Source of the DNA: Shigella phage Henu10
Sequence record: OQ791282
Length of the DNA: 47,865 bases
Direction: 5' to 3' (one strand)
Shown: positions 26,124 through 46,100 of the stretch, one piece after another
Layout of the letters: each line of letters starts with the position of its first letter
Position numbering within the stretch: the stretch's first letter is position 1
Made by a program: the position numbers and the translations under genes
The notes under the pieces: model-generated
Seen by the model: only the letters and a program-made list of their open reading frames with translations
What the model was told of the DNA's origin: nothing
Database searches by the model: none

Positions 26124-26129
26124 AATTAT

Positions 26130-27793: not shown

Positions 27794-27816
27794 AATTTTT
27801 ATTTTGTTCTCATCTA

Positions 27817-28943: not shown

Positions 28944-28999
28944 TTCTCTTAGGGTGGGGGGGTTATGTTTAGATAGTTCTGTATCATTTAATTATAGTT

Positions 29000-29812: not shown

Positions 29813-29837
29813 AGTTTTTCTGGTAACACATTTTGCT

Positions 29838-30125: not shown

Positions 30126-30234
30126 TTTGCTTTTTTATTAGGATTATTTCTTCTCTTGGGCTTTTGCTCTAGGCTTTGCCCTCTTTTCAGAAAGACCACA
30201 GGTCTATTGAGTTTCTTGGCTTCTTCTAATACCT

Positions 30235-30558
30235 CTAAGGCTTTTCTTCGTTGCTCCTTGCTTCGTTGGAGTGTAATTCCTTCCATTCTTTGGTGTCTTT
30301 TATGGTTAGTATTTCTTTTGGGAATTTCTTTTGTTTTTCAAGCTCTACAAAGTTTTTCAGTTCTTCGCTAAAAACTGTTTTCTTTTTAGCTAACTCGGCA
30401 ATCATTTTGAGTGGGAGGGAGGGGGCTTTAACCTTGCAATCTCTGCTCTCAGTTGTATATTTTCTATCGAAAGCCGTTTTATCATCGTGAATAAGTCTTT
30501 GGTTTGGTAATTCACTTGTTCTGATATTTGCTGTATTTGCTGTATTCCTTTGTACCAT
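30235..30558 (-). CDS. Hypothetical protein (overlaps 30402..30803 in another frame)
   Basis: ORF track only. Confidence 0.25.
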   Translation of the reverse strand: MVQRNTANTANIRTSELPNQRLIHDDKTAFDRKYTTESRDCKVKAPSLPLKMIAELAKKKTVFSEELKNFVELEKQKKFPKEILTIKDTKEWKELHSNEARSNEEKP

Positions 30559-30803
30559 TTTGTTTTTTTTAGTTTTTCTAATCCTTTAAGACCTTCTTCT
30601 GGACTTAAAGGGTGTTTTTGTAACACTTTCAAATCACATTCAGAGAGGTATTTATGAGACCAATCTGTAATGAATCTTATTTTATCACTCATCAACTTCT
30701 GATAATGAACATCTGTTACACTTTCTGTTTTTGCGTTGGCGTCCATTACAAAGTTTATGAACGCTTCTTTCACTTCGTCAGAAAGGCATCTCGTCTGTTT
30801 CAT
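30402..30803 (-). CDS. Hypothetical protein
   Basis: 133-aa ORF immediately downstream of helicase gene. Confidence 0.35.
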   Translation of the reverse strand: MKQTRCLSDEVKEAFINFVMDANAKTESVTDVHYQKLMSDKIRFITDWSHKYLSECDLKVLQKHPLSPEEGLKGLEKLKKTKWYKGIQQIQQISEQVNYQTKDLFTMIKRLSIENIQLRAEIARLKPPPSHSK

Positions 30804-31833
30804 AATTTATTGTATTAAATGCTTCACTTGGAGTGGTTCTAAATTCTTCTATTTTAAACTCTTGATTGGGTCTTCTGTCCTTGAACTTTGTGCATTGTGC
30901 AAACTGCACTTTGTCGTCAAACATCTCATAATATCGTCTGCTTCTCCAATCGTAGTAAATGGAGTAAATCCCCCATTTAGCAACCCCTTCAGGCTTAATT
31001 TTCAGGATATGTATATTTGTCTGATTTTCGGCTACATACTCCTCGTCTCCCTCTGGGTTTTCGTTTGGCTCTGGTCTATGGACTAAAATTTGCAACATCG
31101 CTTTTCTGTTGTTATTTTTTCCTCCATAGAACTCGTCAGCTAAAGCTGTGAGTTTTATTCTCTTTCCGCTTTTGGTTGTTACTTTAGCCGTCTCCGCCAC
31201 ATGGTTCACTATGATGTCGAACCTGTTATTTTCCTCTGCTTCTAAATTTATTCTGTTCAATACTCTAAGCACCTCACTCGCTTTAGGCTCAAAGTCGTCT
31301 ATATCGTAAATGGGGTCTATCACAAGGCAGTCAAACTTTATCCCATAATTAGCCTCCGCCATTGCTAACTCTTTGTAGATGTTATCTAGCTTCTGATAGG
31401 AGGTATCTTTTCTATCTTGCTTGAAAATATACAAGTGTCTTAAAATAAACTCTTCTGCCTCTGCTACTTCCTCATCTGTCATAGCGTACTTGTTGGGCTT
31501 TCCATCTGGTCTGACTTTAGTGTATGGCTTACCTTGATACATTCCGCAAAACTGCGTGAAAACTTTCTCTACATCTCCGCTTTCTGTGGTAAATAAAGCC
31601 ACTTTGAAATGGTGCTTTTCAATAAGCTGCATTACCATTTCGTTAGTTACTTGTGATTTACCGTGATTGGGTTCGCCACCTATTAGCAAAGTACATTTCC
31701 TGCTTCCCATTAACCATTTTCCATTGTTAAAGTCATTCCAAGTTTCAAACGAAAAATAGACTGGGTCTATCTCTCCCTTTGTGCGGAGTTTTCGCATCTG
31801 TGAATGAACCGAAGCTAAGTCTATAAACGCCAT
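30778..31833 (-). CDS. DnaB-like / RecA-fold replicative ATPase-helicase
   Basis: Walker A LLIGGEPNHGKSQ and Walker B FDCLVIDPIYDIDD. Confidence 0.6.
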   Translation of the reverse strand: MAFIDLASVHSQMRKLRTKGEIDPVYFSFETWNDFNNGKWLMGSRKCTLLIGGEPNHGKSQVTNEMVMQLIEKHHFKVALFTTESGDVEKVFTQFCGMYQGKPYTKVRPDGKPNKYAMTDEEVAEAEEFILRHLYIFKQDRKDTSYQKLDNIYKELAMAEANYGIKFDCLVIDPIYDIDDFEPKASEVLRVLNRINLEAEENNRFDIIVNHVAETAKVTTKSGKRIKLTALADEFYGGKNNNRKAMLQILVHRPEPNENPEGDEEYVAENQTNIHILKIKPEGVAKWGIYSIYYDWRSRRYYEMFDDKVQFAQCTKFKDRRPNQEFKIEEFRTTPSEAFNTINYETDEMPF

Positions 31834-31845
31834 AATTCTAATTTT

Positions 31846-32622
31846 TTAAACGCTCCAAATTCCGTAAGTCTTCTTCTTTTCTGTGGCTTTTTGAGAGGTT
31901 GTATTTTTGTACTTGTCTAGGGTTACGGGACGGCTAAAAAATTCAGGTGTTAGGTATTTATAGCCTTGTTCCATATGGTATTTGTCCTTTACCGCATTTT
32001 CGATAGCCTCCAGTATATCCTCTTTTGTGTAGCCTTCTTTCAATCTAGCCTTGTACTTTCTCTTTATTTGGTCGTTTATCGTTTTAAACTTGCGTTTTGT
32101 TTTGTCGCTTATGAAGTTTAATAGCTTTTCAAAGTCTATATCGTTATTGGGCTTCGCTTTTCCCTCTTCTTCCAAATCCGAAAGAGACCCTTTTGGTTCT
32201 TTTTCTAAAAGAACATTTAGTTTAGTTTTATTTAGTTTATTGTTAGTATCAGAAACTGTATCAAGAACCGTATCAGAAACCGTGTCAATATCTGTATCAG
32301 AAACTGTATCAAGAACCGTGTCAGCTGTTGATACAGTTGGAAAAACATATTTAGTTTGTCCGTCTATTCCCTTGCTTCTTTTTTGCGGTGTTTTAAAGTC
32401 AATAAGTCCTAATTGCATCAATCTATTTCTAGCATCTCTAACAGTATTAACTGACATTCCAAGTGCGATACTTAAATGTCTGTCGGAATGCCCAAAGGGT
32501 TGCTTCCAGCCCAACGAATTACAAGTATGCAACAGATAGAAGTATAATCTTGTGTCGTTAGGGCTGATGCAACGCTCTAAGTTGCATTGCCAAAATTTGT
32601 TTATGAGAACTATATAATTCAT
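31846..32622 (-). CDS. Replication initiation protein (N-terminal HTH, repeat linker, conserved phage C-terminal domain)
   Basis: Peptide repeats DTVLDTVSDTDIDTVSDTVLDTVSDT encoded by iteron-like DNA repeats; C-terminal region resembles conserved phage replication-protein C-terminal domains. Confidence 0.5.
   Translation of the reverse strand: MNYIVLINKFWQCNLERCISPNDTRLYFYLLHTCNSLGWKQPFGHSDRHLSIALGMSVNTVRDARNRLMQLGLIDFKTPQKRSKGIDGQTKYVFPTVSTADTVLDTVSDTDIDTVSDTVLDTVSDTNNKLNKTKLNVLLEKEPKGSLSDLEEEGKAKPNNDIDFEKLLNFISDKTKRKFKTINDQIKRKYKARLKEGYTKEDILEAIENAVKDKYHMEQGYKYLTPEFFSRPVTLDKYKNTTSQKATEKKKTYGIWSV
32246..32336. repeat. Iteron-like direct repeats (putative origin) inside replication gene
   Basis: GTATCAGAAACTGTATCAAGAACCGT at 32246..32271 and 32294..32319, plus further GTATCA-type units and an inverted TGATAC. 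Confidence 0.5.
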
Positions 32623-32645
32623 ATTTTTTTATTTCCTATCGTGGC

Positions 32646-32837
32646 TTAAAGTACCTTTACCTTTCCATTTTTTTCTTTATACTTAACTTCTGTATTTATT
32701 ATCTCGTACTTCCCATTTGGCAGTCTATTGACCGCTCTTATCTTAGCGGTGAGGGTGTTTTTCTTTTTCTTTTTTGAAATGAGTACCATTTGTTTTTTCT
32801 TTTGCTTCTCTGATTGCCTCTGTGATATTTTTCGCAT
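32646..32837 (-). CDS. Hypothetical basic protein
   Basis: 63-aa ORF. Confidence 0.3.
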   Translation of the reverse strand: MRKISQRQSEKQKKKQMVLISKKKKKNTLTAKIRAVNRLPNGKYEIINTEVKYKEKNGKVKVL

Positions 32838-32925
32838 CTAGGTAAATGGTCCTCTCGCTATTCCAAATGAAAAAAGTGGTACCCATTTTACCTAGATTAA
32901 AATTACTCCCTTCTATTTTCATTAG

Positions 32926-33222
32926 TTAGAAAGGCAAATCGTCGTCGTCCTGAAAATCATCGGCATTTGCTTCCTGTATTTTAGGTGTTGATTTTCTTAG
33001 ATTTCCGATGAATACAGATTTTATATTATCCTTATGATATTCTTCTTTTAATGGAGAGGATATAGAACCGTCATTTTCGTATTTGTCAGGTTCATCATTG
33101 ATATATACATTGACATTGATATATCGTGTTCCGTTTTCGTGTTTAAAAGTTTTTAGTTTACCTGATTTAAGATTTTCTAATAGTTTGTCGTAGTTAATAC
33201 TACCGTAAAATGATTGTACCAT
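32926..33222 (-). CDS. Small protein with SSB-type acidic C-terminal tail (DDDDLPF)
   Basis: C-terminus ...DDFQDDDDLPF resembles the SSB C-terminal interaction tip (E. coli SSB ends DDDIPF). Confidence 0.4.
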   Translation of the reverse strand: MVQSFYGSINYDKLLENLKSGKLKTFKHENGTRYINVNVYINDEPDKYENDGSISSPLKEEYHKDNIKSVFIGNLRKSTPKIQEANADDFQDDDDLPF

Positions 33223-33246
33223 TGGTTTTTATATTTTTAAAAATTA

Positions 33247-34005
33247 TTATTCAATTACTAAATAGCCTTCTCTTTCGTTTTTATAAATGAGACCTTTCCA
33301 CGCTAATAGATTGCTCTTGTCTTTAAATCTTGTAATTCTATGGTCGTTCATTGCTAAATCCATATACTCTACATCTGTAATTAAAGGTGCTTCTTCTAAG
33401 TGCGATTTTATTGTGTCTCTCATCTCAAAAAAGGTTTTTGCTCGTTCCTTAATCTCTGTTTGAAATTCTATATCTGCATCAAATTCTTTGATATGGTATC
33501 TTTGGTCTAATGGAATATCAAACTCTATTTTGTTGCCCCATTCGTCCATAACATTAGAGGTAAGGTAATAGACTAAATACCCTTTGTTAAATCCCGTCGC
33601 TAACATTTGCATCTGGACTTGTGCTAAGTAGTAGGCAGGTACTTTATCAATATTTTGTTTAAAAGTGTATATAGTGTATGGACATTTTATATCCATACAA
33701 TAATTGTCTATGGGGTTAATTACATCAGGAGTAGCCCATAATCCTTTGTCTATTTCAAAACTAACATCTGACTGATAAACAGTATTTTGAAAATTAGGCT
33801 GTATAATTACATTATAGGCTTCTTCTTCATTAAAAATGCCGTGTTGCATTGCTGTTGTTGTAAGATGTTTTTTTTGACCTAAAATCAACTCTAAGGCTTT
33901 TTCGTAAGCAAGGGTTTGAGCGGTCTTTGCCTTTAGCCCTTGTTGGGTAAATAACGCTCCAATTTCAGAAGCTCCAAGTCCTCCAAGTTTGTTTATTTCT
34001 TCCAT
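33247..34005 (-). CDS. YqaJ-like recombination exonuclease
   Basis: N-terminal GGLGASEIGALF motif; paired with ERF gene upstream. Confidence 0.6.
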   Translation of the reverse strand: MEEINKLGGLGASEIGALFTQQGLKAKTAQTLAYEKALELILGQKKHLTTTAMQHGIFNEEEAYNVIIQPNFQNTVYQSDVSFEIDKGLWATPDVINPIDNYCMDIKCPYTIYTFKQNIDKVPAYYLAQVQMQMLATGFNKGYLVYYLTSNVMDEWGNKIEFDIPLDQRYHIKEFDADIEFQTEIKERAKTFFEMRDTIKSHLEEAPLITDVEYMDLAMNDHRITRFKDKSNLLAWKGLIYKNEREGYLVIE

Positions 34006-34577
34006 TAGTTAATTCCTAATTTTTTGAGTTCAGCTTCTGTTTCTTTGGATACCTTGTATTTTTTTCTAATATCGCTAACTGTAAATGTTTTACCTTCGTC
34101 TATGCTTGATACTAATTTAGCCCATTGTTCTGTGTCTTTATTTAGCCACATTGCAGGCTCATTTGCTTTTTGTATCTTGGGTTTCGTGTCTAATACTTGC
34201 TTGTGTTCGTTAGTGTCAGCGTCTTTAGTATCATCTATTAAAAACAAACCATTTAAAGCATATTTGCGTGCATAAGATGACGACGCACCGAATGTTTGTG
34301 ATATATCCATTCCTTTTTTTGTGGGGTCAATACCAGCTTGAGCTTTTACGGATATTTGTGTGTTTTTATCACTAATTGTCGCTGTTGCCTCGCAATAAAT
34401 AATATCACCTATTTGCTTTATTTCATCGGTAATAACTAATGTGCAATCGTGTTTTAGTAATATTGGCTTTAAAGCCTCCAATATATCCTCACAACTTCTG
34501 TACTTGTATTTACCAAAGCTATTATATTGCCCTTTTGGGGCTTTTAGCTCTGATTGTATTTTGATGAGTTTTTCCAT
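34005..34577 (-). CDS. ERF-family single-strand annealing protein
   Basis: N-terminal region FGKYKYRSCEDILEALKP typical of ERF. Confidence 0.6.
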   Translation of the reverse strand: MEKLIKIQSELKAPKGQYNSFGKYKYRSCEDILEALKPILLKHDCTLVITDEIKQIGDIIYCEATATISDKNTQISVKAQAGIDPTKKGMDISQTFGASSSYARKYALNGLFLIDDTKDADTNEHKQVLDTKPKIQKANEPAMWLNKDTEQWAKLVSSIDEGKTFTVSDIRKKYKVSKETEAELKKLGIN

Positions 34578-34691
34578 TTTGTATATTTTTAATTGTTGAT
34601 TTTGTTTCTTGGGGGTTACGAAAAAATGCCGTAACCTTTCTTAACAGGCAATAGCCATAGGTAGTAACCTATTCGTTTTGCCTTTTGGGTT

Positions 34692-34877
34692 TTATATTGT
34701 TTTATCCTCGCTTTCATCTCTGAAAAAGTTTGTGATTTCTTGCTCTTTTACATTCATAAAAAGGCTTATCAATAAAAGCCCTACCGCAGACATCAAAGCC
34801 ATTGTATCGTGGCTTTCTGATACGGCGAAAGCGTAAATAATCGCCGTTACTGTTGTTATTTTTGATAGTGTTTTCAT
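34692..34877 (-). CDS. Small membrane protein
   Basis: 61 aa with two hydrophobic segments. Confidence 0.3.
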   Translation of the reverse strand: MKTLSKITTVTAIIYAFAVSESHDTMALMSAVGLLLISLFMNVKEQEITNFFRDESEDKTI

Positions 34878-34973
34878 TTTTTGGACTTTTTAAAGAAGTA
34901 GTCTAGTATATCTTTCTCAAACTCGGTGGCTTCTTGGTATTTTTTACCGTTGATAAGCCAATAGCCGTTTTGA

Positions 34974-35288
34974 TTATTTATTTTTATTAAAGTCATTTTT
35001 TAGGTCTGCTAGATGATACTCTAGTTCTAGGTCTTCTTCTTGGTTTTCGTATAGCTTTTGTTTCGCTATATTTACCCAGCCTTTTTGGGCTTCTTCTGAC
35101 ATTTGGAGGTCTTTTAGGCAAAGATTTTCATCTGTGATATTTACCTCTCCAAATTCATCTACTGTTACTAAAACAGTGTCGTCTTCGTCTATTGCGAACC
35201 ATACGGTAGGGGTAGTATTTCTACCCTCGTAATTGAACCCAAAATCGTTAAATTTTAAGGTTTCTAAGTTTTGTTGTATCTTTGCCAT
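34974..35288 (-). CDS. Hypothetical acidic protein
   Basis: 104-aa ORF. Confidence 0.4.
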   Translation of the reverse strand: MAKIQQNLETLKFNDFGFNYEGRNTTPTVWFAIDEDDTVLVTVDEFGEVNITDENLCLKDLQMSEEAQKGWVNIAKQKLYENQEEDLELEYHLADLKNDFNKNK

Positions 35289-35343
35289 ACTTTTGATTTT
35301 TTAAGGATTTAACATTCTTATTAAACTTGCTCTCTAATTGCCG

Positions 35344-35553
35344 TTAGAGGGCTTTTTTTCTTCTTTTTCTCTTTGGTTTTGGATATATTTTATACCTTTC
35401 TTTGGAATCAAACATAGCGTGCAACCTCTTCTTTCTACTTTCTTTGCTTTCCGCTACCCCTAACATCCAGCGATGAATTTTCTCTGTCTCTTTAGGGTCG
35501 CACACTAATGTTAATTGTGTTCTAAATATTGGTATAAGTTGCTCTGCTGTCAT
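35344..35553 (-). CDS. Hypothetical protein with basic C-terminus
   Basis: 69 aa; start overlaps stop of Cro-like ORF (ATGA). Confidence 0.4.
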   Translation of the reverse strand: MTAEQLIPIFRTQLTLVCDPKETEKIHRWMLGVAESKESRKKRLHAMFDSKERYKIYPKPKRKRRKKAL

Positions 35554-35729
35554 ATCTCAATCTCGTCTATTTCTTTTTTTAAACATTCTTTTGCTCTTTT
35601 TCTAATGTTCTTTGCAAGTTCACTCTCTGTGAAATATTTTAGAGCGTTAGTAATAGTCTGTTGAGTTACCCCAAACTCTTCTCTTAAGATTTTGTGATAT
35701 TTACTTGGTAGGCTTATTCTTTTTTTCAT
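35550..35729 (-). CDS. Cro-like HTH regulator (59 aa, below ORF-track cutoff)
   Basis: Translation MKKRISLPSKYHKILREEFGVTQQTITNALKYFTESELAKNIRKRAKECLKKEIDEIEI; first gene of the leftward early operon, divergent from the CI-like gene. Confidence 0.5.
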   Translation of the reverse strand: MKKRISLPSKYHKILREEFGVTQQTITNALKYFTESELAKNIRKRAKECLKKEIDEIEI

Positions 35730-35746
35730 AACTTTAACCCGTTAAA

Positions 35747-35809
35747 TTGATAGTGCAAATATAATACAAAATTGTATTATATAAAAATAATAATGATACA
35801 ATTCTGTAT
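35747..35809. promoter_or_regulatory. Early promoter/operator region
   Basis: Minus-strand TATATTTG (35763..35756) inside the 19-mer TTGATAGTGCAAATATAAT, also present at 40704..40722; inverted repeats ATACAA-N2-TTGTAT (35764..35777) and ATACA-N4-TGTAT (35796..35809). Confidence 0.5.
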
Positions 35810-35848
35810 TAAACAATTTAATTAACTGAAAATCAATATTAAAAATTT

Positions 35849-36415
35849 ATGAGAAGCTTTAGATTAAGCATTATTTCCTTAGTAATTTCTCTAATCGCTA
35901 TTTCTTTGGTGTATTTTAGACCTAGCCCTATTGAAATAGATATGTTTAATTCTATCATTACCATTCTGGCTCTTCTCATAACCTTACTAATAGGATATCA
36001 GATTTTCCAAATAATTGATTTTAAGCAAGAAAAAACCAACTTATTAAATGAAGTTGATAAAAAATTTAAGGCTACCCAAGAAGAGTTTGATAAGTCTATG
36101 CTAGAGATGAAAGGGGCAAATACAGTAATGTACAGCCATTTTTTTCAGTATTATATGGAGGGACAAAATGATTATGGTGTACTTTCCACATTTTCTGATA
36201 TTGTAATAAATAACTCACATAATGAAGATTTGTGCAAAGTAATGCTAAGAGCTGTTTTAGAATATACAGAAACGGGAATAACATTTAAACACGAATATGA
36301 ACAGAAAGAAATAATGAAATTATTTGAAGCAAAATCTATAGATTTTTTAAAAGCAATAGACAAAGAAAAATTTGAACTATTAAGAGAACGACTAGATATG
36401 TCATCAATTCGTTAG
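35849..36415 (+). CDS. Membrane protein (superinfection-exclusion candidate)
   Basis: Two N-terminal transmembrane helices; sits between the cro-like and cI-like genes. Confidence 0.4.
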   Translation: MRSFRLSIISLVISLIAISLVYFRPSPIEIDMFNSIITILALLITLLIGYQIFQIIDFKQEKTNLLNEVDKKFKATQEEFDKSMLEMKGANTVMYSHFFQYYMEGQNDYGVLSTFSDIVINNSHNEDLCKVMLRAVLEYTETGITFKHEYEQKEIMKLFEAKSIDFLKAIDKEKFELLRERLDMSSIR

Positions 36416-36684
36416 ATGATTTTGACTGTTCAGTGTTATTTACTAGCGAAGTGTTATTTTCTTTGGTATGAATGGGTGTATTTTTATCAAGAAGTAAAGA
36501 ACGAAAGATTGTTTCTTTAACAATATTTGAAGCTCTTTCTTGGTGTATTTTGGCTACAATTTTTTTTGATAGCTCATTTGATAAGAGAGCTTTATCATAT
36601 TTCTCTTCGTTGATTGCTTTGTAAATAATTTCTAAATCGTTCATATTAGCAATGTTTAGGATGTTAAAATAATAATACAAATAT

Positions 36685-37443
36685 ATGAAAAAGATAATAC
36701 AGAAAAGTATTAAAAATAATTTAAAGGATAGATTAAATACTGTTTATAACTATCTGAAAAAAACGACAGAATTTACAACGCAAACACTTTTAGCTGAGAA
36801 GATAGGATATACACGCTCTAATTTTTCAGCTGCATTAAATGGAGACGAGAGGTATCTAACAGAAGGTGTTGTTGATAAAATAGTGGAGGCTTTTCCGCAG
36901 TTAAATAGAGAGTGGTTCATAACGGGCAAAGGCGAAATGCTAAAGTCTTCAGAAGAAACTCCGATAAAAGGGGAGGGGGTAAAAGTAATTTTAGACGCAG
37001 AGATAAAAAGAACCCCATCGGAAGGCACACCTTATTATGATGTTGATTTTGCCGGAGGTTGGAACTCTGATGAGATTTTTTCACTTGGGAATCCATCATT
37101 TTATATCCAAAGTCCAGATTTTAGAAGGGCAGAGTTTGCTACTAATCTCGTGGGAAACTCTATATCAAAGATAATTCCCAGTGGAGCCATTGTAGGATTT
37201 AGACAAGTAGAGGATTGGAAAACTTATTTCCCAACAAATGAGCTGTATGGTATCATTACTAAAAACGAAATGAGAACCGTAAAAAGGGTAAAAAGAAAGA
37301 AAGGAGACTCAAATACACTTGTGTTGATTCCTGACCCATTAGAGGTTCATTCAGGATATGAGCCTGAGGAGTTGCCTATTGATTTTGTTTCAAAGATGTT
37401 TCAAGTGGTTGCTTGGGCAATGTTTGAGAGAGTAGCAATGTAA
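36685..37443 (+). CDS. CI-like repressor (HTH plus S24 LexA-like peptidase domain)
   Basis: N-terminal HTH (TQTLLAEKIGYTRSNFSAALNG); C-terminal GNSISKIIPSGAIVGF with downstream Lys-rich segment resembles the S24 Ser-Lys dyad region. Confidence 0.65.
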   Translation: MKKIIQKSIKNNLKDRLNTVYNYLKKTTEFTTQTLLAEKIGYTRSNFSAALNGDERYLTEGVVDKIVEAFPQLNREWFITGKGEMLKSSEETPIKGEGVKVILDAEIKRTPSEGTPYYDVDFAGGWNSDEIFSLGNPSFYIQSPDFRRAEFATNLVGNSISKIIPSGAIVGFRQVEDWKTYFPTNELYGIITKNEMRTVKRVKRKKGDSNTLVLIPDPLEVHSGYEPEELPIDFVSKMFQVVAWAMFERVAM

Positions 37444-37457
37444 TTAAAATAGAAATT

Positions 37458-37910
37458 ATGAGTCCTACTGAAAAAGGAAAGATATTTGAGGATTATGTTC
37501 AGGATATAATGTTTCCTGTTGATAGATATATAGTCGTTAGAAAGACGCCTAATTTTGAGGACGCAAGCAAACGATTGATAGAAGATTGCAATAATCCTGA
37601 TTTTACATTTAGAAGAATAAGAACAGGGAAGGAGTATAGCGTAGAGGCTAAATTCAGAATACCTAGAGGGTACAATGTTAATGTTTGTACGGAAGAACAG
37701 CTAGAGAGATATAGAAAGTATGATGAGCAAAGCCCTACTTTTATGGCTTTAGGAATAGGAGGGTGTCCGTCTAGTCCTACGATATTACTGTTTTTTCATA
37801 TAAGTAAGCTGGCGAGCACCAATATTTTCTTACCTGATTTCTTTAAGGATAATTATTTCAGATTGAACAGCCCTGTATTTTCTAAGTATATGGAAAAATT
37901 ATTAAGATGA
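37458..37910 (+). CDS. PD-(D/E)xK-like nuclease-fold protein, putative
   Basis: IFEDYV ... NNPDFTF ... SVEAKF gives an E / PD / ExK pattern with canonical spacing. Confidence 0.35.
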   Translation: MSPTEKGKIFEDYVQDIMFPVDRYIVVRKTPNFEDASKRLIEDCNNPDFTFRRIRTGKEYSVEAKFRIPRGYNVNVCTEEQLERYRKYDEQSPTFMALGIGGCPSSPTILLFFHISKLASTNIFLPDFFKDNYFRLNSPVFSKYMEKLLR

Positions 37911-38176
37911 AAACAGCGATAGACGAAAGAATATTGAGCCTGCCGAGATACCTAAAGAAGAACGGAGAAATAAAAAGGCTCCAAGAGTTCTACGATGAAA
38001 TTGGAATTTCCAAGCAACGGTTTAATAAAATTAAAAAACAAGATATAAGTGGCATTAACGCACACTTTACCGTTGAGCAGATACACAAAATAGGAATAGT
38101 TTATGGCATTGATTTTAATTGGATTTTTGGGGTAACAGATACCCCTAGACAAAACACCAAAAGTGCACAAATTTAA
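37907..38176 (+). CDS. HTH protein (excisionase/regulator candidate)
   Basis: 89 aa; YDEIGISKQRFNKIKKQ HTH-like; immediately upstream of the integrase. Confidence 0.4.
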   Translation: MKTAIDERILSLPRYLKKNGEIKRLQEFYDEIGISKQRFNKIKKQDISGINAHFTVEQIHKIGIVYGIDFNWIFGVTDTPRQNTKSAQI

Positions 38177-38228
38177 AAAAAAGTCAAAACAAAACTATAT
38201 TGATTATCAATAAATTAAAATTTCAAAA

Positions 38229-39545
38229 ATGGCAAAAAATGGTCAAAAAGTTTCCCTCTCTCTCCGCAAAAAGGAGTTAAGCCGTTGTAAATCAACGGTT
38301 TTGCTTTATAAAACAGGTCTTAAAGCACAAAAGTGCACAAATTCCATTTCCGCTACCCCTAATGTCCAACACTTTAATTTGGACGAAATGGAAAATTATT
38401 GGACTAATCCCAAAGTGAAACATTACCCCTTAGAAACAGGTAAGGATTGGTATGTTTGGTTTCGATTTAACGGAGGTAATCCCATTAGAGTAAAGCAAGG
38501 GCTTAATCAGATTCCAGAATTTGAGGAAAGGCTGCAAGAGGCTTATGCAATGGCAGATGTCATAAGAGAAAGGCTAGAGAGTGGTTGGGTTCCTCAAAGT
38601 GCTAAAGTGAGGGTAAAAAGGATAAATCTTATAGATGCCGTTATATTTGGCTTTGAGGAAAAAAAGAAAACTCTTTCAAAAAACAGCATCGATAATTTTA
38701 GAAGCTCTGTCAATTTCTTTATTGAAGCGGTCAAGGAGTTGCAATATCACAGAATGCAGGTGTCTAGTTTTGAAAGGATACAAGCTAAAGAGGTTCTGGA
38801 ACATCTAAAAAATGAGAAAGGCTGGTCTAACAAGACTTATAATAAACATCTTGGTTTTTTAAGGTCTGTTTTTCACGAAATACTTGACGCTGACTACATA
38901 AAAAGTAATCCATTTAGAGACATTAGAAATCTAAAGGTTCTAAAAAAAGAAGCAAATGTACCTCCAACAAATGAGGAGATGAAAGCTATATCTAACGCTT
39001 TGCAGGATTACTGTTTTGGGTTCTATGTCTTTTGTTCCACTATCTATTATTGCGGTATCCGTCCTGCGGAGTTGGTGCAAATGAAAGTATCAATGCTAGA
39101 TTTGGATAACGAGCTAATCAATTTACCTGCTGAAATAACAAAAACAGATGCTGATAGGGTAGTACCCATAAGCGAAAACTTGAAAAGTCTATTTTCAAAA
39201 TTTAACCTTTCTAATCCTCATAATTATTTGTTTGGTACTTGCGTGCCGAATGGAGGAAGGCACGGTATTAAAAATAGATATTTTGAGCCTAATGAGTTCA
39301 AAGTAAAGGAAGACACAGCTAATAAGCTATGGCGTAGGCTGATAAAAGACGGCTTAGGCATTGACAAAAATATGTACTCCTTGAAGCACAAAGGAGCAGA
39401 CGATAAAATATTAGCAGGAATGCCTATTGAAACCATACAGGCTATATTTGGACACTCTACTCAAAAAATGACCGAGCGATATGCTAGGATAATGAAATTG
39501 CAAAGATTTGAAGAGGCTAAAAAAATAAAGTTGCCTTCTTTTTAG
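38229..39545 (+). CDS. int: Tyrosine integrase (true start may be ATG 38388)
   Basis: C-terminal catalytic region ...GHSTQKMTERYARI (H-x-x-x-T-x-x-Y); a terminator-like hairpin and a 16-bp direct repeat lie within the first 160 nt of the track ORF. Confidence 0.8.
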   Translation: MAKNGQKVSLSLRKKELSRCKSTVLLYKTGLKAQKCTNSISATPNVQHFNLDEMENYWTNPKVKHYPLETGKDWYVWFRFNGGNPIRVKQGLNQIPEFEERLQEAYAMADVIRERLESGWVPQSAKVRVKRINLIDAVIFGFEEKKKTLSKNSIDNFRSSVNFFIEAVKELQYHRMQVSSFERIQAKEVLEHLKNEKGWSNKTYNKHLGFLRSVFHEILDADYIKSNPFRDIRNLKVLKKEANVPPTNEEMKAISNALQDYCFGFYVFCSTIYYCGIRPAELVQMKVSMLDLDNELINLPAEITKTDADRVVPISENLKSLFSKFNLSNPHNYLFGTCVPNGGRHGIKNRYFEPNEFKVKEDTANKLWRRLIKDGLGIDKNMYSLKHKGADDKILAGMPIETIQAIFGHSTQKMTERYARIMKLQRFEEAKKIKLPSF

Positions 39546-39550
39546 ATAAA

Positions 39551-39581
39551 AACCGCGAGAATTTACAAAGTTCTCGCGGTT
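39551..39581. terminator. Bidirectional terminator between convergent int and Panacea-pair operons
   Basis: Perfect 11-bp stem AACCGCGAGAA / TTCTCGCGGTT with loop TTTACAAAG. Confidence 0.6.
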
Positions 39582-39586
39582 CTAGT

Positions 39587-40189
39587 TTATAATTTTTGTG
39601 AATCTTGTTTAGAGTATAACTCTTTTATCTCTTCTGTAACGATAGGTTCATAAAATTTTATAAAATCATCTATAACACTTTCGTCACATGAATTTTTATT
39701 ATAACCTACATAAATATTGTCTCTGATATTTCCTTTTTGTTTCATATCATATTCTTTTTTTATACAATTTCTTTTCAAAAAAGTATAAAAAACGCTCATT
39801 CTTCTGTTTAAATCCTCTTTTTGAGAGTGTTTGACATAGTTGTCATCTAATGCATAAAAACAAAAAGAATAACCCTTATGTTCTTCTATGCAAAGGTTAA
39901 AACATTCTCTGAATAGTCGTAAAGTTACCATAGGATTTATACAATCCCTACCTTTATTTCTTTTAAATTTTTTTATCCCTTTAGATTTGGAAAATTTAGT
40001 AAAATAAAAAGACAAAACAATTATTTTGTATTTTTCAAAACGCTCTAAAAGAATTATCCATCTATGCTTTTTGTCTTCATCACAAATAATGAGGCTATAT
40101 TCCTCTTCAACATAAAATACTCCGTGCTTGTCTTTATTGGAACTTTTAATCCTTTTTTTAGAAACTTTAAAATAACTCTTCCCCAACAT
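39587..40189 (-). CDS. Hypothetical protein, putative toxin partner of the Panacea-domain protein
   Basis: 200 aa, Cys- and Lys-rich; overlaps the upstream gene by 23 nt; no recognisable domain. Confidence 0.35.
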   Translation of the reverse strand: MLGKSYFKVSKKRIKSSNKDKHGVFYVEEEYSLIICDEDKKHRWIILLERFEKYKIIVLSFYFTKFSKSKGIKKFKRNKGRDCINPMVTLRLFRECFNLCIEEHKGYSFCFYALDDNYVKHSQKEDLNRRMSVFYTFLKRNCIKKEYDMKQKGNIRDNIYVGYNKNSCDESVIDDFIKFYEPIVTEEIKELYSKQDSQKL

Positions 40190-40679
40190 TACTGTTAAAA
40201 GTTGCTATCCCACATACATTGTGATTGACAACAGGTATCCTTCCGTTACCGTCCAATGAAAAATCAGAAATACTTTGTCCATCTATTTTTATTGTATTGG
40301 TAGATATTTGCTCAGGAGAAATTTCTCCTCTAGCATTTCTCCAAAGAGATTCACTATGAGTCAAATCTACTAACTCTAATCCTGTATATCCTCCATAAAT
40401 CTTCCAAATTTCATTCAGATGAGAAACGATTTCTTTATCACATATATCTTTTTCAATATATCTCTCATTTATTAAATCCCCTCTTCTTATAAACCTATAT
40501 TTATCCCAAACATTGCGAACAACAGGACCTAATACCCAAGCCTGTATTTCGTCTTTAAATAGCAAATTTCTATACTTAACAAAATACCAAACTTGAGAGT
40601 AAAATAGAAGTTTCTGTAACTTCAGTGGTGTTACTCCTTTTCTAATAAAGAAAAACGATATATCTACTGCGGAATACAC
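40167..40679 (-). CDS. Panacea-domain (DUF4065 / GepA-like) protein, PanA-like antitoxin candidate
   Basis: N-terminus MYSAVDISFFFIRKGVTPLKLQKLLFYSQVWYF...AWVLGPVVRNVWDKY matches the Panacea hallmark (T.LKLQKLLYYAQ ... AW..GPV); own TATATTTG promoter at 40720..40713. Confidence 0.55.
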   Translation of the reverse strand: MYSAVDISFFFIRKGVTPLKLQKLLFYSQVWYFVKYRNLLFKDEIQAWVLGPVVRNVWDKYRFIRRGDLINERYIEKDICDKEIVSHLNEIWKIYGGYTGLELVDLTHSESLWRNARGEISPEQISTNTIKIDGQSISDFSLDGNGRIPVVNHNVCGIATFNSNVGEELF

Positions 40680-40854
40680 GATACAATATTTTATATATTA
40701 AATTTGATAGTGCAAATATAATATTTTAAAATTATTTTTATTTTTCTATTATTAAATTATGTAGTCAAATGTGCAAAAGCAGTTTAAATCTAAATGTCTA
40801 AATGATAAAAACCACCGTGAGGGTGGTTTTTGTTTTTACTTGCATTTGACGATA

Positions 40855-41349
40855 TTAGAAACTTACATATTCTGTCTTTTGCCTATTATACAACCCTTGC
40901 AAATCTGCAATAGACTTACCAAAGGTTTTTTGAAAATGTGGAGGGTCAGTAAATCTCCAATCGCCGCCCCAAGTCCAACCATAGCGTTTAAATATAGCTA
41001 CAATTTCTTGCCAATCTGCTATTTTATCATTGTCAAAATCTGCTTTTGTGTCCCACACGGCTGTTTGGTAAGTTCCGTTATTGTCTTTATCCACTAATAA
41101 GCAAATATCAATAGCCAATCCATAATTATGGTAAGACTGTCCACCTCTTGCATTAGTTACTCGTTTTCCTTTTTTTGTTCGACCTATTGCGTACAAGTCG
41201 TTTTGCTCCTTAAAAGTTCGGAGCGTATGAGTAAATCTACAAATAGCATTCCCTGTAAGAGCCTTGCAAATTTCCTTATAAATAGCTTTAGCTTCTTCCC
41301 TTAATTTCGGGTGCAAAAGTTCAATTCTTTGCAGTGTGATTTTATCCAT
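40855..41349 (-). CDS. Endolysin, peptidase M15 (L-alanyl-D-glutamate peptidase-like)
   Basis: Motifs RTFKEQNDLY, SYHNYGLAID and DWRFTDPPHF match M15/VanY zinc-ligand architecture. Confidence 0.75.
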   Translation of the reverse strand: MDKITLQRIELLHPKLREEAKAIYKEICKALTGNAICRFTHTLRTFKEQNDLYAIGRTKKGKRVTNARGGQSYHNYGLAIDICLLVDKDNNGTYQTAVWDTKADFDNDKIADWQEIVAIFKRYGWTWGGDWRFTDPPHFQKTFGKSIADLQGLYNRQKTEYVSF

Positions 41350-41361
41350 AGTCTTGTTTTA

Positions 41362-41940
41362 TTAAAATAGTTTTATTCTTTTCAGATAAAAGTAAAGTAC
41401 AGCCCCTGCGATAATTAGGATACTACCTATAATTATCCACACCCAAGTACCGAATGTAAATCCAGATGATTTCACTTCGTTAGATACCGCCCTTATTTCA
41501 TTAGCTACCTCATTTATTGTTCTTTGGGACACGGTGTTTCTTGCCAATTCCTGCACTTCATTAAGATATTCCTTTACTTCTTTTTTCTCCGTTGTATGTT
41601 GATTGCTATTCTTGAAAGATTTAACCGAGAATTGAGCATTCCCCTTTATGATGATGCTTTGTAAAGTATCCTTACCCTCTACTTCGTGAAAGACAAAGGG
41701 CTTATCGGTTTCTGTTTTTCCGAAAATTTCGATTTTCTTTTCTTGATGTTTAGAATGTTTATCAATCTGAAGTTTATCCTGTACTTTAGTCGTTTGTTCC
41801 CGCTTGATTTCTTTTGCAGAAATGCTGTCTTTTAGCTTTACTTCCACAGTTTTACTTTGGATATGAGTGTCCGTCTTCTTCCTCGTCCGACAAGAAAACA
41901 AAAGAAGTACAGCGATTATCAATAAAAATTTACTCTTCAT
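41362..41940 (-). CDS. Unimolecular spanin-like lipoprotein, putative
   Basis: N-terminal lipoprotein signal (LLLFSC) and C-terminal transmembrane helix in one 192-aa protein, between holin and endolysin. Confidence 0.4.
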   Translation of the reverse strand: MKSKFLLIIAVLLLFSCRTRKKTDTHIQSKTVEVKLKDSISAKEIKREQTTKVQDKLQIDKHSKHQEKKIEIFGKTETDKPFVFHEVEGKDTLQSIIIKGNAQFSVKSFKNSNQHTTEKKEVKEYLNEVQELARNTVSQRTINEVANEIRAVSNEVKSSGFTFGTWVWIIIGSILIIAGAVLYFYLKRIKLF

Positions 41941-42451
41941 ATTTTTTAGTTTTAAAAGTTTCTAAATCTGCATTTTCATTAAACTTGCGTAATTTTTTCA
42001 TCCACCCGACTGGTGGAAACTTTCCATTGGTTAGAATTGATAAATTCCCCATTGCACTTCCCGCAGGATAGAGTAAAACCATTAGTTGGAGCAATACTTT
42101 GAAATAGATGGCTATAAAATCAACATCTTTGACAATTTGATGCACCATTTCAAACAGAACATAGCCCACAATTACGCTTGTGGTTTTCCCAAATAACCCA
42201 TAGACATTTTCTTTAAATGAAAAATCCCTTTTCCTCCAATGCACCCAACTACCTAAAATATGGTCTAAAAACAACGCCACAAAAACAAAGGTCATAAAGA
42301 TTTGGTTTTCTATGTACCAACCGATAAACCGCTCCGTAAGAGATATTCCTATGGCTGGTGCGGCAGCTAATTTTATCGTTCCTAGTATTTTTTGGCTTGC
42401 AGTTCCTGTATGTATATTCATCAGATTAGTGATGATAAACTCTTTAATCAT
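41930..42451 (-). CDS. Holin-like membrane protein
   Basis: 173 aa with several predicted transmembrane helices; lysis cassette position. Confidence 0.45.
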   Translation of the reverse strand: MIKEFIITNLMNIHTGTASQKILGTIKLAAAPAIGISLTERFIGWYIENQIFMTFVFVALFLDHILGSWVHWRKRDFSFKENVYGLFGKTTSVIVGYVLFEMVHQIVKDVDFIAIYFKVLLQLMVLLYPAGSAMGNLSILTNGKFPPVGWMKKLRKFNENADLETFKTKKYEE

Positions 42452-42807
42452 AATGTGCGTCTTTTATTAAAAATTTGCCAAAGTTTTCGGTTTTTCAAAT
42501 ACTCTAAATCGTTTTGATTCTCATAAGCCTCTCGTTCAAATATGATGTTCCGATAGGCTTCTCTATGGTTCTTGTACCTAAACAAGTTCCATAGGTAGTT
42601 TAGTCCATACCAAACGAAAAAAGGCAAAATCAGTAATTCTAATTGCTGTCTTAGATGTATTTTCTCGTGGTTCAACAAGTACCTATTACTTTGATACTTT
42701 TTATTCTTTAGAAAGATGAAAGGAAACACCGCCATTGCGGTGTACCCTCTCGGTACTAAATACTTACTTATTATTACCATCTTCTGCCTCTTTTTTTTCA
42801 ACTTCAA
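42448..42807 (-). CDS. Small membrane-associated protein with HExxH motif
   Basis: NHEKIH motif, basic N-terminus, hydrophobic segment. Confidence 0.3.
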   Translation of the reverse strand: MKLKKKRQKMVIISKYLVPRGYTAMAVFPFIFLKNKKYQSNRYLLNHEKIHLRQQLELLILPFFVWYGLNYLWNLFRYKNHREAYRNIIFEREAYENQNDLEYLKNRKLWQIFNKRRTL

Positions 42808-43087
42808 AGCCGTTTATTATTTCTAAGATTGTATCTAAGGCACTATTGACCACCTGTAAATCTTCCACACTATTTACGCCTGTTCCATTTAATGATAGCC
42901 CTCCACCTTTAGAGTAAGAACCTGATAAGGTATTCCCGTCTTGTAATTGAGTGCTGAAATTGACCATTTGGGGAGTTTTATTATTGTAATCAGTTTCGTA
43001 CTGATAATAAATTTGTTTTTCCCCAATGTTTTCCATTAGCGTTGTTGCTACTCTCTCGTTTACTTTTTGTAAGTTTTTTGTTTTCAT
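42764..43087 (-). CDS. Hypothetical protein
   Basis: 107-aa ORF downstream of the fibre gene. Confidence 0.3.
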   Translation of the reverse strand: MKTKNLQKVNERVATTLMENIGEKQIYYQYETDYNNKTPQMVNFSTQLQDGNTLSGSYSKGGGLSLNGTGVNSVEDLQVVNSALDTILEIINGFEVEKKEAEDGNNK

Positions 43088-43113
43088 AGTTTTATTGTTT
43101 TTAAAAGTTATTA

Positions 43114-46100
43114 TTATGAATAATTTGTTATTATACCTTTTCTAATGGTAAGCCATACTCCCCCCAAAAATAATTCTCCTGTATATCCTACCTCTCCACC
43201 CACACGAATATCTCCCGATTCTATATTTAAGGCAGTAGCATACTGTCCGTCAGCCCTTATAGATAGGGCGTTGTAGGGCGTATAATTGTTCACATCACGC
43301 CCCCAGAGCCGAAGTATATTGTTTTTATTTCCGTTTAAAATACTATCATCATTATTGATGAGAGCATAGCTTTCTCTCCCAGATGAAAGACTTTTTTTAT
43401 ATGAAAGTATGCTTCCAGATGACTTTATTTCTAAATAGTCGTTTGGGTCTGCTATTCCTTGCCCCGAAAGTGTATTTCCGCTAATATTGAACCTTGCTAT
43501 TTTACCACCTGTAATTTCCATATCAGAGCCATAAACTTTCCCATTATCCAGCACCCTAAATGGTGCATTATGTTTATTGGCGTAGTTCGCTCCTGCTCCA
43601 AATCTCACGCTCATTGCTCCCTCGTCGGTAATACCACTAATAAAAGCGTTTTGATTAGCTTGGTTGCTTCCGACTGACATCAAGTTAGCCATCATCAACC
43701 CGCCTTGAATAGAAGTGAAGTTGTCGGTCTTGGTCTTCACATCAGCCAAAGAGGTTTGCATATTAGCTATTCCTTGTTGAAGGTTGGCAAATAGTGCGTC
43801 CAAGTCTTCGGGGGCGGGTGTCCAATCGGTTGCTTTATTGCCTTTTTCAAGTTTTACATCTTTAAACCAAACTGTATTGTTGCTAAACGCTCTGAGTATA
43901 AAGATGAAATAGGCTGTGTCAGGCTGTGTCCTTATTGTGAAGTTCACATATTTATATTCTGAATTAACAGGGAACTCCCTGTAATTATCAGAATAAACAG
44001 TCGTATGAGTGCCGTTCTCTTTCATTTCTAATGCGTAGAAAAAAGCTGAACCTATCCCCTTAACAAAGGCTGATATTGTATATTCTGTGTTTTTCTCACA
44101 TTTTATATTTTGGTCTATTTGATTGTAAACTTGTCCATCTATCGAGGTTATTTTAACGCTCCTTTCATTAGGTAGAAACTCTGCTTGTGGATACCCTTTG
44201 CTCCAATGCTCTCCACCGTTTTTAAATTCAGTATTGCGAGCTAGGTTTCGACCACCAACAATTACTCCATTGATAGCATTATTAAGTTGAGATGTTGTTG
44301 CACCTCCACCATTACTCACTATTGCCGAAGCGTTTAGTAACTCTGTTTTGATATAGCCTCCCTGCACAATTGTGTTGCCGAGCATTGCTCTTTCTACGGA
44401 GTTCTGCCACGCCATTGTGCCGAGATTATTAAATTTGCTAGTAACCTCGTTTCTATGAGTATTTACCAACGCTTGAGCGTGTGCCTTAGCTTCTTCTAAC
44501 TTCGCCTTAGCTTCATTTATTCTCGCTTGTTCTTCGGCGGTCACTATACTATCTGCGTGAGCCTCTGCTTGCAACCTCGCCAAATTAGCTTTAGCTTCCG
44601 CCACAGCAATAGCTGATTGTTCAGCCTTATCAGCTTTTCCATCTGCGTAGGCTTTTATTAGCGTTTCCTTTAAGTTATCTTGTGCCTGTGCATACTCTTT
44701 AGCTAATTGCAGTTTCTGCTGGGCATCTGCAATCGCTCGTTGTTCTTCTTTGCTAACCTTTCCGTCAGCGTACGCTTCCGCCTGCGTCTTGGCTAAATTA
44801 GCCTGTGCCTGTGCGTAAGCATTAGAGGCTTGTGTTGCCTGTTGCTCGGCTCTTGTAATATCTGATTGTATATCTTCAGGAGCAGGTGTCCAATCAGTAG
44901 CTTTATTTCCTTTTTCTAACTTCCAATTTCTGTGGTAAATTTTTGCAGTTGCAGGAACACTTCCGTCATTATTCCATATCGCATATATGCCCATAAAACG
45001 AGTGTTGTTATATGGAGAATTTTCTATCTTCGTCCAAACATTCGCAGGACAAAATTTTCTATTATTCTCCCCAAAACCTATATACATATCGTGAGTGGGC
45101 TTTACTTCCATTGATTGGATAGTTTCCTGCCCTGTGAGGTCTTCCGTGAAAACACTTATATTATTGAGTAAATGAAAATAGGTAGAAATATAAAAATTAC
45201 CATTATTCACACTTGTTCCAGAAATCCATTTCACTCCATTTTCCTCTCCCTGTGTTAAGTCCCATGTTCTTCCGTTGTTGTTGAACATTCCGTATCCTTT
45301 TTGAGAACCCCTAAGGTAATTTCTACCTCCTACACTTACCGCATCCACCGCTTGTTGTATAGCACTCCCAACTTCCGCATAACCATTACCGCTTTTGAAC
45401 TTAATCGTTCCTGCTATTTCCCCACTATCCAAATCAAAATAGGTTTGTCCGTTGAGCGATTTAATTCTCCCTGCTGTTATTTGCCCTCCGTGCATAAATA
45501 CATTACCGTACATTGCTTCTGCTTCTCGTTTACTGTCTTTTGGTGTGTAGAGTAAGTAACACAAGAAGTAATAATAATCTGACCGACTATCAAACCTTAT
45601 CTGCTCGGTGGTGATATACCACATCGCATTACTACTTCCTCTTGAACATTTCGCATAAACGTAATAAACCTGATTCAATAAATCATTACGGCTGTATGGT
45701 AGTAAATTCCACTCTCTAATATCGTCTTCTAAAGAAAAATGAACCAACTTCCCACCACTAATAAATGTTCTTGCAGGATTACCCTCTATATTAGGATTCA
45801 GACTTATATTTTCTAATGCAAATTGTTGGCTCTTTGCTCCAACCGAAAGCATATTGGCTTCTATACTCTCTGGCTTGATATGTGTAGAGTCAAAGTAACC
45901 CTCTACATCAAAGACACTTTCTCGAAGCTCTTGCAGGTTACGATAACCGTTCAAGTAATTTCGTCGGTTAATTTGTTCCTGCGTTTTTATAACCGTTTTA
46001 GTATCTTTAATATCGGTAAGCAGACTTGCTACAAAGCTGATTTCGTAAGTGTCCGCAATGCCTATTTTGTAATTATATTCATCTAATAAGTCCCTCGTAA

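Follow-up and report, generated by a model that had tools for sequence, protein, structure and literature searches.

The 47,865 nucleotides (nt) of sequence record OQ791282 (Shigella phage Henu10), all of which were analyzed and are called the window below, are placed by tblastn and megablast among the RAP44-like temperate siphophages of Riemerella anatipestifer. Two adjacent genes of its tail module, coding for a Dit-like tail protein of 367 amino acids (aa) and a Tal-like central tail fibre protein of 1452 aa, contain three modules that resemble carbohydrate-binding modules (CBMs), two of them nearly identical. We consider it probable, at roughly three chances in four, that Dit and Tal of this phage display exchangeable cassettes in three slots, that these cassettes bind host polysaccharide, and that swapping them retargets the phage.

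The duplicated cassette and its predicted fold

A preliminary description of the window, made from the letters alone, had reported a long repeat of high identity that joins the fibre gene to the gene of the adjacent tail protein, and this repeat is confirmed here. Its size had been given as ~105 aa and ~315 bp at ~93% identity, which has to be corrected: the near-identical unit comprises 150 codons (450 nt; Dit aa 192-341 vs. Tal aa 1074-1223), and the 318-nt span given earlier (43811..44128) arose because the repeat could be followed only as far as the end of the window. The two copies of this cassette, type T2 in our nomenclature, lie in direct orientation 3.7 kb apart and differ at 26 nt (94.2% identity) and 8 aa (142 of 150 identical). 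In a codon-by-codon comparison their identity falls to random levels directly outside both borders, and a chance match over 450 nt is excluded. The ratio of non-synonymous to synonymous substitution rates (dN/dS) is 0.15 for the pair, with 17 of the 26 differences at third codon positions, and both copies are under purifying selection and functional.

The module had further been counted twice in the fibre and once in the 367-aa protein. This holds for the ending motif KGNKATDWTP(A/N)PED, found at Tal aa ~853-867, Tal aa ~1209-1223 and Dit aa ~327-341, but only two of the three modules are nearly identical copies. The module in the first slot of Tal (type T1) has 31% aa identity to T2 (BLASTP E 5e-13), and the nucleotide sequence that T1 and T2 share is confined to 44 nt of border sequence (86% nt identity over the three copies) with the motifs GGRN and EKGNKATDWTPAPED. 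Judged by these comparisons, T1 is a paralogous cassette of another type and not a third copy of T2. The 127-bp exact core reported earlier is real as well (44002..44128 = 47739..47865 = 1..127), but its meaning had to be revised, as it is at the same time the terminal overlap of the contig and occurs twice, not three times, in the circle of 47,738 bp.

A receptor-binding module with a possible carbohydrate-binding fold had also been suspected, and Pfam, profile searches against the PDB and structure prediction agree on a CBM-like beta-sandwich. With the Pfam family CBM_4_9 (PF02018; cut-off 25.9 bits), the Dit copy of T2 passed marginally (26.0 bits) and the Tal copy stayed below the cut-off (21.2 bits; E 3.9e-4). 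The profile of the module matched, among PDB sequences, the porphyran CBM 8xmz, the CBM4 1gui, CBM22 xylanase modules and a phage CBM-cenC protein (E 4e-7 to 5e-4 for the CBM4, CBM22 and porphyran CBM chains); Tuc2009 BppA (5e7t) was matched only marginally (E 0.014, above the default cut-off of the tool). The AlphaFold2 (AF2) model of T2 is an all-beta sandwich with a predicted local distance difference test score (pLDDT) of 74.7 and a predicted template modelling (TM) score of 0.69. When this model was compared with the PDB using Foldseek, the CBM4 1gui came first (E 1.3e-6), followed by CBM16, CBM22 and CBM-like domains of phage tailspikes (probability 1.00 to 1gui, 2zex, 3oea, and 4xup; TM-scores 0.5-0.6), and the same search in BFVD returned phage receptor-binding proteins (RBPs), BppU proteins, host-specificity proteins, and one lactococcal Dit. 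Models and profiles together support the prediction that T2 is a CBM4/CenC/BppA-like beta-sandwich.

Cassette types and slots among the relatives

Dit and Tal were extracted from GenBank relatives and IMG/VR prophage loci (~20 relatives; L numbers denote individual loci), and cassette types were set at a 60% identity threshold of the module interiors. All extracted modules are framed by (V/I/Y)GGRN(L/Y) on the N-side and (K/E)(L/V)EKGNKATDWTPAPED on the C-side, and at least 8 types are distributed over three slots, namely the Dit C-terminus, Tal slot 1, and Tal slot 2 (Table 1). Four types occur in both Dit and Tal: T1 in Dit, slot 1 and slot 2; T2 and T4 each in Dit and slot 2; and T8 in Dit and slot 1. 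A T1-type cassette sits in the Dit of CRP6, PJX6, PJO17, and PJN03, and PJO17 and PJA1 carry T1 twice, in parallel to the two T2 cassettes of the phage studied here. The slot-1 T1 of this phage and the T1 in slot 2 of CRP12 are 100% identical in aa and 98.2% identical in nt. Three cassettes were present in the Tal of the L015 prophage, in the order T1, Ala-rich spacer, T3, neck, T2. The preliminary description had proposed module exchange from the repeat alone, and the comparison of fibre genes bears it out, with differing types in the same slots, the same types in Dit and Tal, and a breakpoint at the GRN codons.

Table 1 Cassette types in the slots of Dit and Tal of the window and its relatives
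Phage or locus	Dit	Tal slot 1	Tal slot 2	Remarks
This phage	T2	T1	T2	Ala-rich spacer between Tal slots
CRP12, CRP19	T2	T3	T1	
PJO17, PJA1	T1	T3	T1	
CRP6	T1		T2	single Tal slot
PJX6	T1	T3	T4	
RAP44	T4		T6	single Tal slot
CRP34	T4	T5	T6	
L018	T8	T3	T1	
L024	T2	T8		slot 2 beyond contig end
L014	no cassette-bearing Dit ORF found	T1	T7	Ala-rich spacer
L015 (IMGVR_UViG_2841113585_000002, 3556..)	no cassette-bearing Dit ORF found			three Tal slots: T1 (slot 1), T3, then T2 (slot 2); Ala-rich spacer

Breakpoints and history of the T2 pair

The first 2155 nt of Tal are 100.000% identical to Tal of CRP12. This identity stops in the GGTAGAAATT codons (window 45318), and inside these 10 nt (G-R-N) the sequence switches to that of the slot-2 cassette of CRP12, which it matches at 97.8%. 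Only ~10-16 nt are shared at this junction, the borders being conserved mainly as protein while their synonymous sites differ. In Dit, nt 1-570 are 100% identical to CRP12, as are both flanks of the cassette, and the Dit cassettes of other relatives differ exactly between the YGRN and PAPED codons, with the flanks conserved outside.

The 94% identity of the T2 copies, their direct orientation at a distance of 3.7 kb and the 127-nt identical tract would also fit a recent tandem-like duplication in this genome, in which T2 was copied from Dit to Tal or in the reverse direction and then diverged by 6%. This course of events is improbable given the alleles of the relatives: Tal T2 resembles the Dit T2 of CRP19 (95.3%) more than it does the Dit copy of its own genome (94.2%), Dit T2 shares 98.7% identity with its CRP12 counterpart, and the last ~50 nt of T2 segregate by slot and not by genome. 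Moreover, T2 is found in slot 2 of CRP6 and L015 and in the Dit of CRP12, CRP19, and L024, so that both placements predate this genome. Six sites separate Dit T2 from its counterpart in CRP12, all of them within the 127-nt core, and at all six the Dit base equals that of the Tal copy in the same genome. The differences between the two copies are mosaic, and an identical run of 127 nt among 26 differences has a probability of ~0.003 under an even spread; exact runs of 80-200 nt are common among same-type alleles of different phages. From this pattern, the tract would be the signature of a short conversion patch, for which the second copy in the genome or, equally, a CRP19-like allele could have been the donor. 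The allele comparisons indicate that cassettes of a pool shared across the population are assorted combinatorially, that the T2 pair is one product of this, and that its 127-nt tract was homogenised afterwards.

A pair of stretches with ~94% identity, of which one lies in a ligand-binding domain, may also recall a diversity-generating retroelement, with one T2 copy as the template repeat and the other as the variable repeat of a lectin-fold target. The differences are, however, not adenine-directed (A in Dit at 9 sites, A in Tal at 8, and in neither at 9), they fall mostly on third codon positions at the low dN/dS given above, and the identical PT15 record (see below) has 79 annotated features, none of which is a reverse transcriptase. 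Such a target is refuted by the substitution pattern together with the lack of an annotated reverse transcriptase, and we assign it practically no probability.

Circular genome and sibling records

The first 127 nt of the window equal its last 127 nt (47739..47865), and the tail genes located at the window start, namely the gene of the tape measure protein (1967..6148) and two small open reading frames (ORFs), are joined over the junction to those at its end, which gives the tail gene order tape measure protein, two small ORFs, Dit, Tal. This terminal overlap and the tail genes running on over the junction show that the window is a circular contig, with 47,738 unique bases, and a complete genome; only when it is read as a circle does the 367-aa Dit-like protein exist.

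Three GenBank records labelled as complete genomes cover most of this circle. PT15 (ON933637; 44,128 bp) matches window 1..44128 without a single mismatch, and PT33 (ON922917) is the reverse complement of window 209..43971. For PT03 (MZ995504; 44,001 bp), the last 1,002 bases, the only part compared directly, equal window 43127..44128, and megablast places the whole record on window 128..44128, i.e., PT15 minus 127 nt. The three records stop inside the two T2 cassettes, PT15 exactly at the end of the 127-nt core, and lack ~3.7 kb (window 44129..47738), in which the C-terminus of Dit and Tal aa 1 to ~1115 are encoded. At both ends of PT15 and PT33, and at the one end of PT03 that was examined, the depositors annotated only a truncated 'similar to hypothetical protein'.

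These records bring up the doubt already voiced in the preliminary description, that the repeat might be an assembly artefact: the second T2 copy or its 3.7-kb arc would be a mis-join, and the real genome a circle of 44.0 kb as in PT03 and PT15. It is true that the contig starts and finishes within the repeat, that the longest exact match is exactly 127 nt, the length of the terminal overlap and a common largest k-mer of assemblers, and that the arc is missing from three GenBank 'complete genomes' otherwise identical to the window. A circle of 44.0 kb, however, would join the Dit N-terminus to the Tal C-terminus and remove Tal aa 1 to ~1157 together with the PF06605 hub domain, which is kept by every relative, and the record ends are flagged as truncated by the depositors themselves. 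In CRP12, the Dit N-terminal part, T2, the Dit tail, and the Tal N-terminus stand in one stretch with flanks 100% identical to those of the window, while neck, T2, and C-terminus stand in one stretch in CRP6 and L015; with a single shared 127-mer, the path taken by the window is, in addition, the only single-circle path. As CRP12, CRP6, and L015 independently show the cassettes contiguous with their flanks, an artefact is rejected for the window, and we regard it as highly improbable. From these sequence comparisons we conclude that the window is correct and that the three PT records are short by ~3.7 kb, their assemblies having apparently collapsed at the repeat. The contig breaks within the repeat, whose exact core has the usual length of the largest assembler k-mer, for which 127 is a common value; the break point is therefore repeat-induced.

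Other records of the family end or break in the same region. PJA1 (L010, PQ820058) ends inside its own Dit T1 cassette, the Tal of PJN03 (L011, ON245412, 1..2642) jumps out of frame from ~aa 691 to the C-terminal domain with the cassette region missing, and the records of GRAP2 and GRNRAP2 end near the slot-2 C-border. As a by-product of the analysis, several public records of this phage family are thus recognized as truncated or broken at cassettes.

Architecture of the two tail proteins

Tal is laid out as an N-terminal hub domain, cassette slot 1, an Ala-rich spacer, a neck, cassette slot 2, and a C-terminal domain (Table 2). Its aa 115-267 match Pfam Prophage_tail PF06605 (47 bits, passing the cut-off of 31.3), and the protein matches phrog_19846 with E 0; phmmer, run with the complete Tal sequence against the PDB, gave no match. 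The neck was found in all relatives (78-82% nt identity), and AF2 confidence is low there. The C-terminal domain, for which neither Pfam nor the PDB gave a match, is mosaic, with at least 3 allelic forms among the relatives (loci L006, L007, L008, L010, and L014): its middle part differs in PJO17, PJA1, and L014, and its last ~20 aa differ in PJX6, CRP34, and L021. No separate RBP gene follows Tal, where the only ORF (107 aa) has no Pfam or PHROG match.

The Dit gene is located directly upstream of Tal and downstream of the tape measure gene, whose 1393-aa product was identified by Pfam TMP_3. The Dit-like protein matches phrog_6305 'tail protein' (E 1.5e-62) and, weakly, Pfam Sipho_tail (16.7 bits, below the cut-off of 24.2). 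Pfam detected no galectin domain in it, the cassette following aa 191 and leaving only 26 aa behind, and the search of the Dit N-terminus against PDB sequences returned noise only. The 26-aa tail is kept at 93-100% nt identity in all relatives, regardless of the cassette that precedes it.

Table 2 Features of the window, with positions in the protein and in the window
Feature	Protein	Window	Strand	Remarks
Tal-like central tail fibre gene	1452 aa	43114..47472	-	ORF; Pfam Prophage_tail PF06605; phrog_19846
Tal N-terminal structural domain	aa 1-715	45328..47472	-	ends at ...AVDAVSVGGRN border
Cassette type T1, Tal slot 1	aa 716-867	44872..45327	-	CBM-like; ends in EKGNKATDWTPAPED
Ala-rich helical spacer of Tal (predicted)	aa 868-1012	44437..44871	-	
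Conserved neck of Tal	aa 1013-1073	44254..44436	-	NLGTMAWQNSVE...NGVIVGGRN; leads into slot 2
Cassette type T2, Tal slot 2	aa 1074-1223	43804..44253	-	
Tal C-terminal domain	aa 1224-1452	43114..43803	-	
Dit-like tail protein	367 aa	47460..47865 then 128..825	-	wrap-around
Dit-like N-terminal part	aa 1-191	253..825	-	
T2 cassette in Dit, N-terminal 42 codons	aa 192-233	128..252	-	
T2 cassette in Dit, C-terminal 108 codons	aa 234-341	47541..47865	-	continues over contig junction
Dit C-terminal tail	26 aa	47460..47540	-	THYITISGNIDEITNLQTNAEELWSL; after cassette; overlaps Tal start codon
Erf-type single-strand annealing protein		34005..34577	-	'essential recombination function protein' in identical PT15 record

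Between the tape measure and Dit genes, on the opposite strand (window 1432..1964, +), a small HigB-like fragment and a helix-turn-helix (HTH) protein are encoded. A full HigB/HTH pair is present at this position in RAP44 and CRP34, and the segment looks like a moron inside the tail module.

The Ala-rich spacer

The segment between the two Tal slots (145 aa; 26% Ala, 12% Gln, 10% Glu) contains three imperfect units on A(Y/H)AD(G/S)(K/I) turns, at window 44775, 44652, and 44562. Ala-rich coiled-coil repeats had been described earlier at ~44400..44900; the imperfect repeats are there, but a tandem repeat of the DNA is not, and the coiled coil is only partly borne out, with a confident prediction of helices. 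The repeats exist at the protein level only, because Tandem Repeats Finder, run on 43000..47865, gave no array in the Ala-rich region. With Pfam GA_3 (PF22775; cut-off 27 bits), the segment scored 33.1 bits alone and 24.2 bits in the whole protein. AF2 predicted four helices (query 2-34, 42-75, 83-105, and 113-151; pLDDT > 90) broken at the ADG turns, and a Foldseek search with this model gave no significant match (best E 0.22). The model points to a helical spacer, for which a parallel trimer and an antiparallel bundle are both possible arrangements.

Homologues with the consensus AYADGK(V/I)(T/S)xEExRAIADAxAK were found in Sphingobacterium, Niabella, and metagenomic proteins, where they alternate with bordered CBMs. 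The segment is absent from other Riemerella phage records; two prophage loci, L014 and L015, contain it in almost identical form and at the same position after T1. Behind it, L015 has a second AVSVGGRN border and a T3 cassette, for which reason T1 plus spacer looks like an inserted block.

Bordered modules in other phages

In the Elizabethkingia phage TCUEAP3 (L012, 2462..6655), Tal contains a helical spacer and two cassettes that are nearly identical and framed by these borders, whereas Dit is reduced to 142 aa and lacks a cassette. Word-indexed homologue searches returned mostly short fragments, and the size of the family was taken from an exhaustive profile search, which found 19,337 cluster representatives, 9,563 of them at E <= 1e-10. 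Among the 150 proteins listed, each has 2-15 matched stretches, and the family extends to proteins as long as 6,542 aa, with as many as 15 copies set apart by helical spacers. The three family sequences that were read (P0083, P0173, P0209) have the same or closely similar borders (e.g., GGRNL/F; EKGNKATDWTPAPED, EKGDKATDYTPAPED).

We also consider a bolder idea, namely that the GGRN and EKGNKATDWTPAPED borders constitute a phylum-spanning plug-and-play standard in which any bordered CBM would fit any slot of Dit, Tal, or giant fibre and dock properly on the shaft, with 10-45 nt of border sequence serving as splice points with the help of phage annealing proteins. This is speculative and more doubtful than probable; if true, it would provide a ready rule for redesigning siphophage targeting in Bacteroidota and Firmicutes phages alike.

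Matches to the EKGNKATDWTPAPED codons at window 44872..44918 were also seen in Staphylococcus jumbo phages, with up to 46 of 47 nt (PALS_2, 97.9% over 47 nt; MarsHill and Madawaska, 95.6% over 45 nt). They probably reflect the same peptide motif combined with an AT-rich codon choice, and not a transfer. No papers were retrieved from the literature with the motif strings WTPAPED, DWTPAPE, and GNKATDW, and the Riemerella phage papers PMC12845321 and PMC12169736 contain no tail-module analysis.

Comparison with known adhesion devices

CBM-decorated adhesion devices of siphophages with modular shuffling are already known. An 'evolved Dit' together with a CBM-bearing Tal has been described in Lactococcus 936/P335, Streptococcus thermophilus cos/pac, and Lactobacillus J-1 phages (PMC6669499, PMC7533335, PMC7291167), BppA-like CBMs decorate Dit and Tal of Gram-positive siphophages, and the CBM of BppA resembles 1GUI and 1GU3 (PMC7291167). 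The variable regions of S. thermophilus Tal govern host specificity, according to work of Duplessis and Moineau in the form in which it is cited. The phage studied here shares with the Gram-positive devices a BppA/CBM4-like beta-sandwich on both Dit and Tal, its Tal follows the same plan as described for S. thermophilus, and, as for BppA, the best structural matches of T2 include 1GUI and 1GU3. It differs from them in its host, a Gram-negative Bacteroidota, and in a single cassette pool that serves Dit and both Tal slots. In the 'evolved Dit' the CBM is placed in a loop of the galectin domain, whereas here the module is a C-terminal cassette followed by the 26-aa tail, with no galectin domain detected by Pfam; likewise, the spacers are Ala-rich alpha-helical AYADGK repeats instead of the collagen-like spacers of Gram-positive siphophages.

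With CBM family 4/CenC (PF02018; 1gui, 1gu3, 8xmz; CBM16, CBM22), the modules have profile and fold similarity as a ~150-aa beta-jelly-roll in common, but the identity is ~15-17%, they are located on virion proteins and not on glycoside hydrolases, and they have invariant GGRN/EKGNKATDWTPAPED borders. Beads-on-a-string giant fibres (PblB-type receptor-binding, host range and adsorption PHROGs) have the same border motifs and helical spacers, with 3-15 modules per protein; here, in contrast, the fibre has only two modules, and a third one has been relocated to the ring protein Dit. In mosaic tail-fibre genes, conserved linkers serve as points of exchange, a general principle of modular shuffling in phage adhesion devices (PMC7291167). 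Our case is comparable in its variable receptor-binding segments between conserved ones and in a breakpoint located in a conserved segment, but the junction homology is only ~10-16 nt, with borders conserved mainly as protein. What is new here is the host group, the map of three cassette slots with a pool common to Dit and Tal, and one breakpoint at the GRN codons.

Proposed host binding and its alternatives

Because polysaccharide binding is the established behaviour of CBM-bearing Dit and Tal in phages of lactic acid bacteria, we infer by analogy that the cassettes bind a host glycan and affect the host range. They would bind the serotype-specific surface polysaccharide of the host (capsule or O-antigen), and recombination at the short conserved border sequences would swap them and retarget the phage. 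Its own Erf annealing protein possibly helps in this border exchange and may be regarded as a candidate driver of short-homology cassette exchange. In siphophages, Dit is generally a hexamer and Tal a trimer. If the same is assumed here, a virion would display ~9 T2 and ~3 T1 modules, and the two T2 copies would raise the avidity for one glycan. Lytic counts are available for 111 strains, of which PJA1 lyses 24, PJO17 27, PJR4 11, PJL1 16, and PJX6 8 (PMC12169736); phages with the combination T1/T3/T1 thus lyse 24 and 27 strains, compared with 8-16 for those with T1/T3/T4.

In an alternative explanation, the modules would serve as accessory adhesins, as adhesins for targets other than the host (such as mucus or glycans of the environment) or as purely structural decorations, and the host specificity would reside in the Tal C-terminal domain. 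This domain is unannotated and has several alleles too, and the Dit CBMs of lactococcal phages bind the host with a lower affinity than the bona fide RBP (PMC7291167). On the other hand, the modules are located on the baseplate proteins that first meet the cell, host-driven diversification would be expected to give just such a high turnover of cassettes under purifying selection, and the short ORF after Tal offers no separate RBP gene. We therefore regard an accessory role as unlikely, though it is the least unlikely of the rival explanations considered.

Several points weigh against host binding by exchangeable cassettes and have to be set beside the evidence in its favour. The CBM_4_9 scores are marginal, the confidence of the AF2 model is moderate, and its TM-scores to known structures reach only 0.5-0.6. 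The identity of Dit is suggested by the PHROG match and synteny, with Sipho_tail below its threshold and no galectin domain seen. The longest exact match between the T2 copies coincides with a common assembler k-mer length, and the oligomeric states of Dit and Tal as well as the role of Erf are assumptions. The host-range counts fit an effect of slot 2 plus the C-terminal domain only loosely, being compatible but confounded, and receptor binding proper could lie with the Tal C-terminal domain, to which the CBMs would then be accessories.

Implications

Devices with CBM-decorated Dit and Tal, which are mainly known from Gram-positive dairy phages, are extended by these observations to a Gram-negative Bacteroidota host. 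R. anatipestifer comprises many serotypes, and phage therapy in ducks is limited by narrow host ranges. The cassette map, with its three slots, at least 8 types, and defined borders, is a concrete hypothesis for the host range of R. anatipestifer phages, and the defined borders mark precise junctions for engineering or for the choice of cocktail members.

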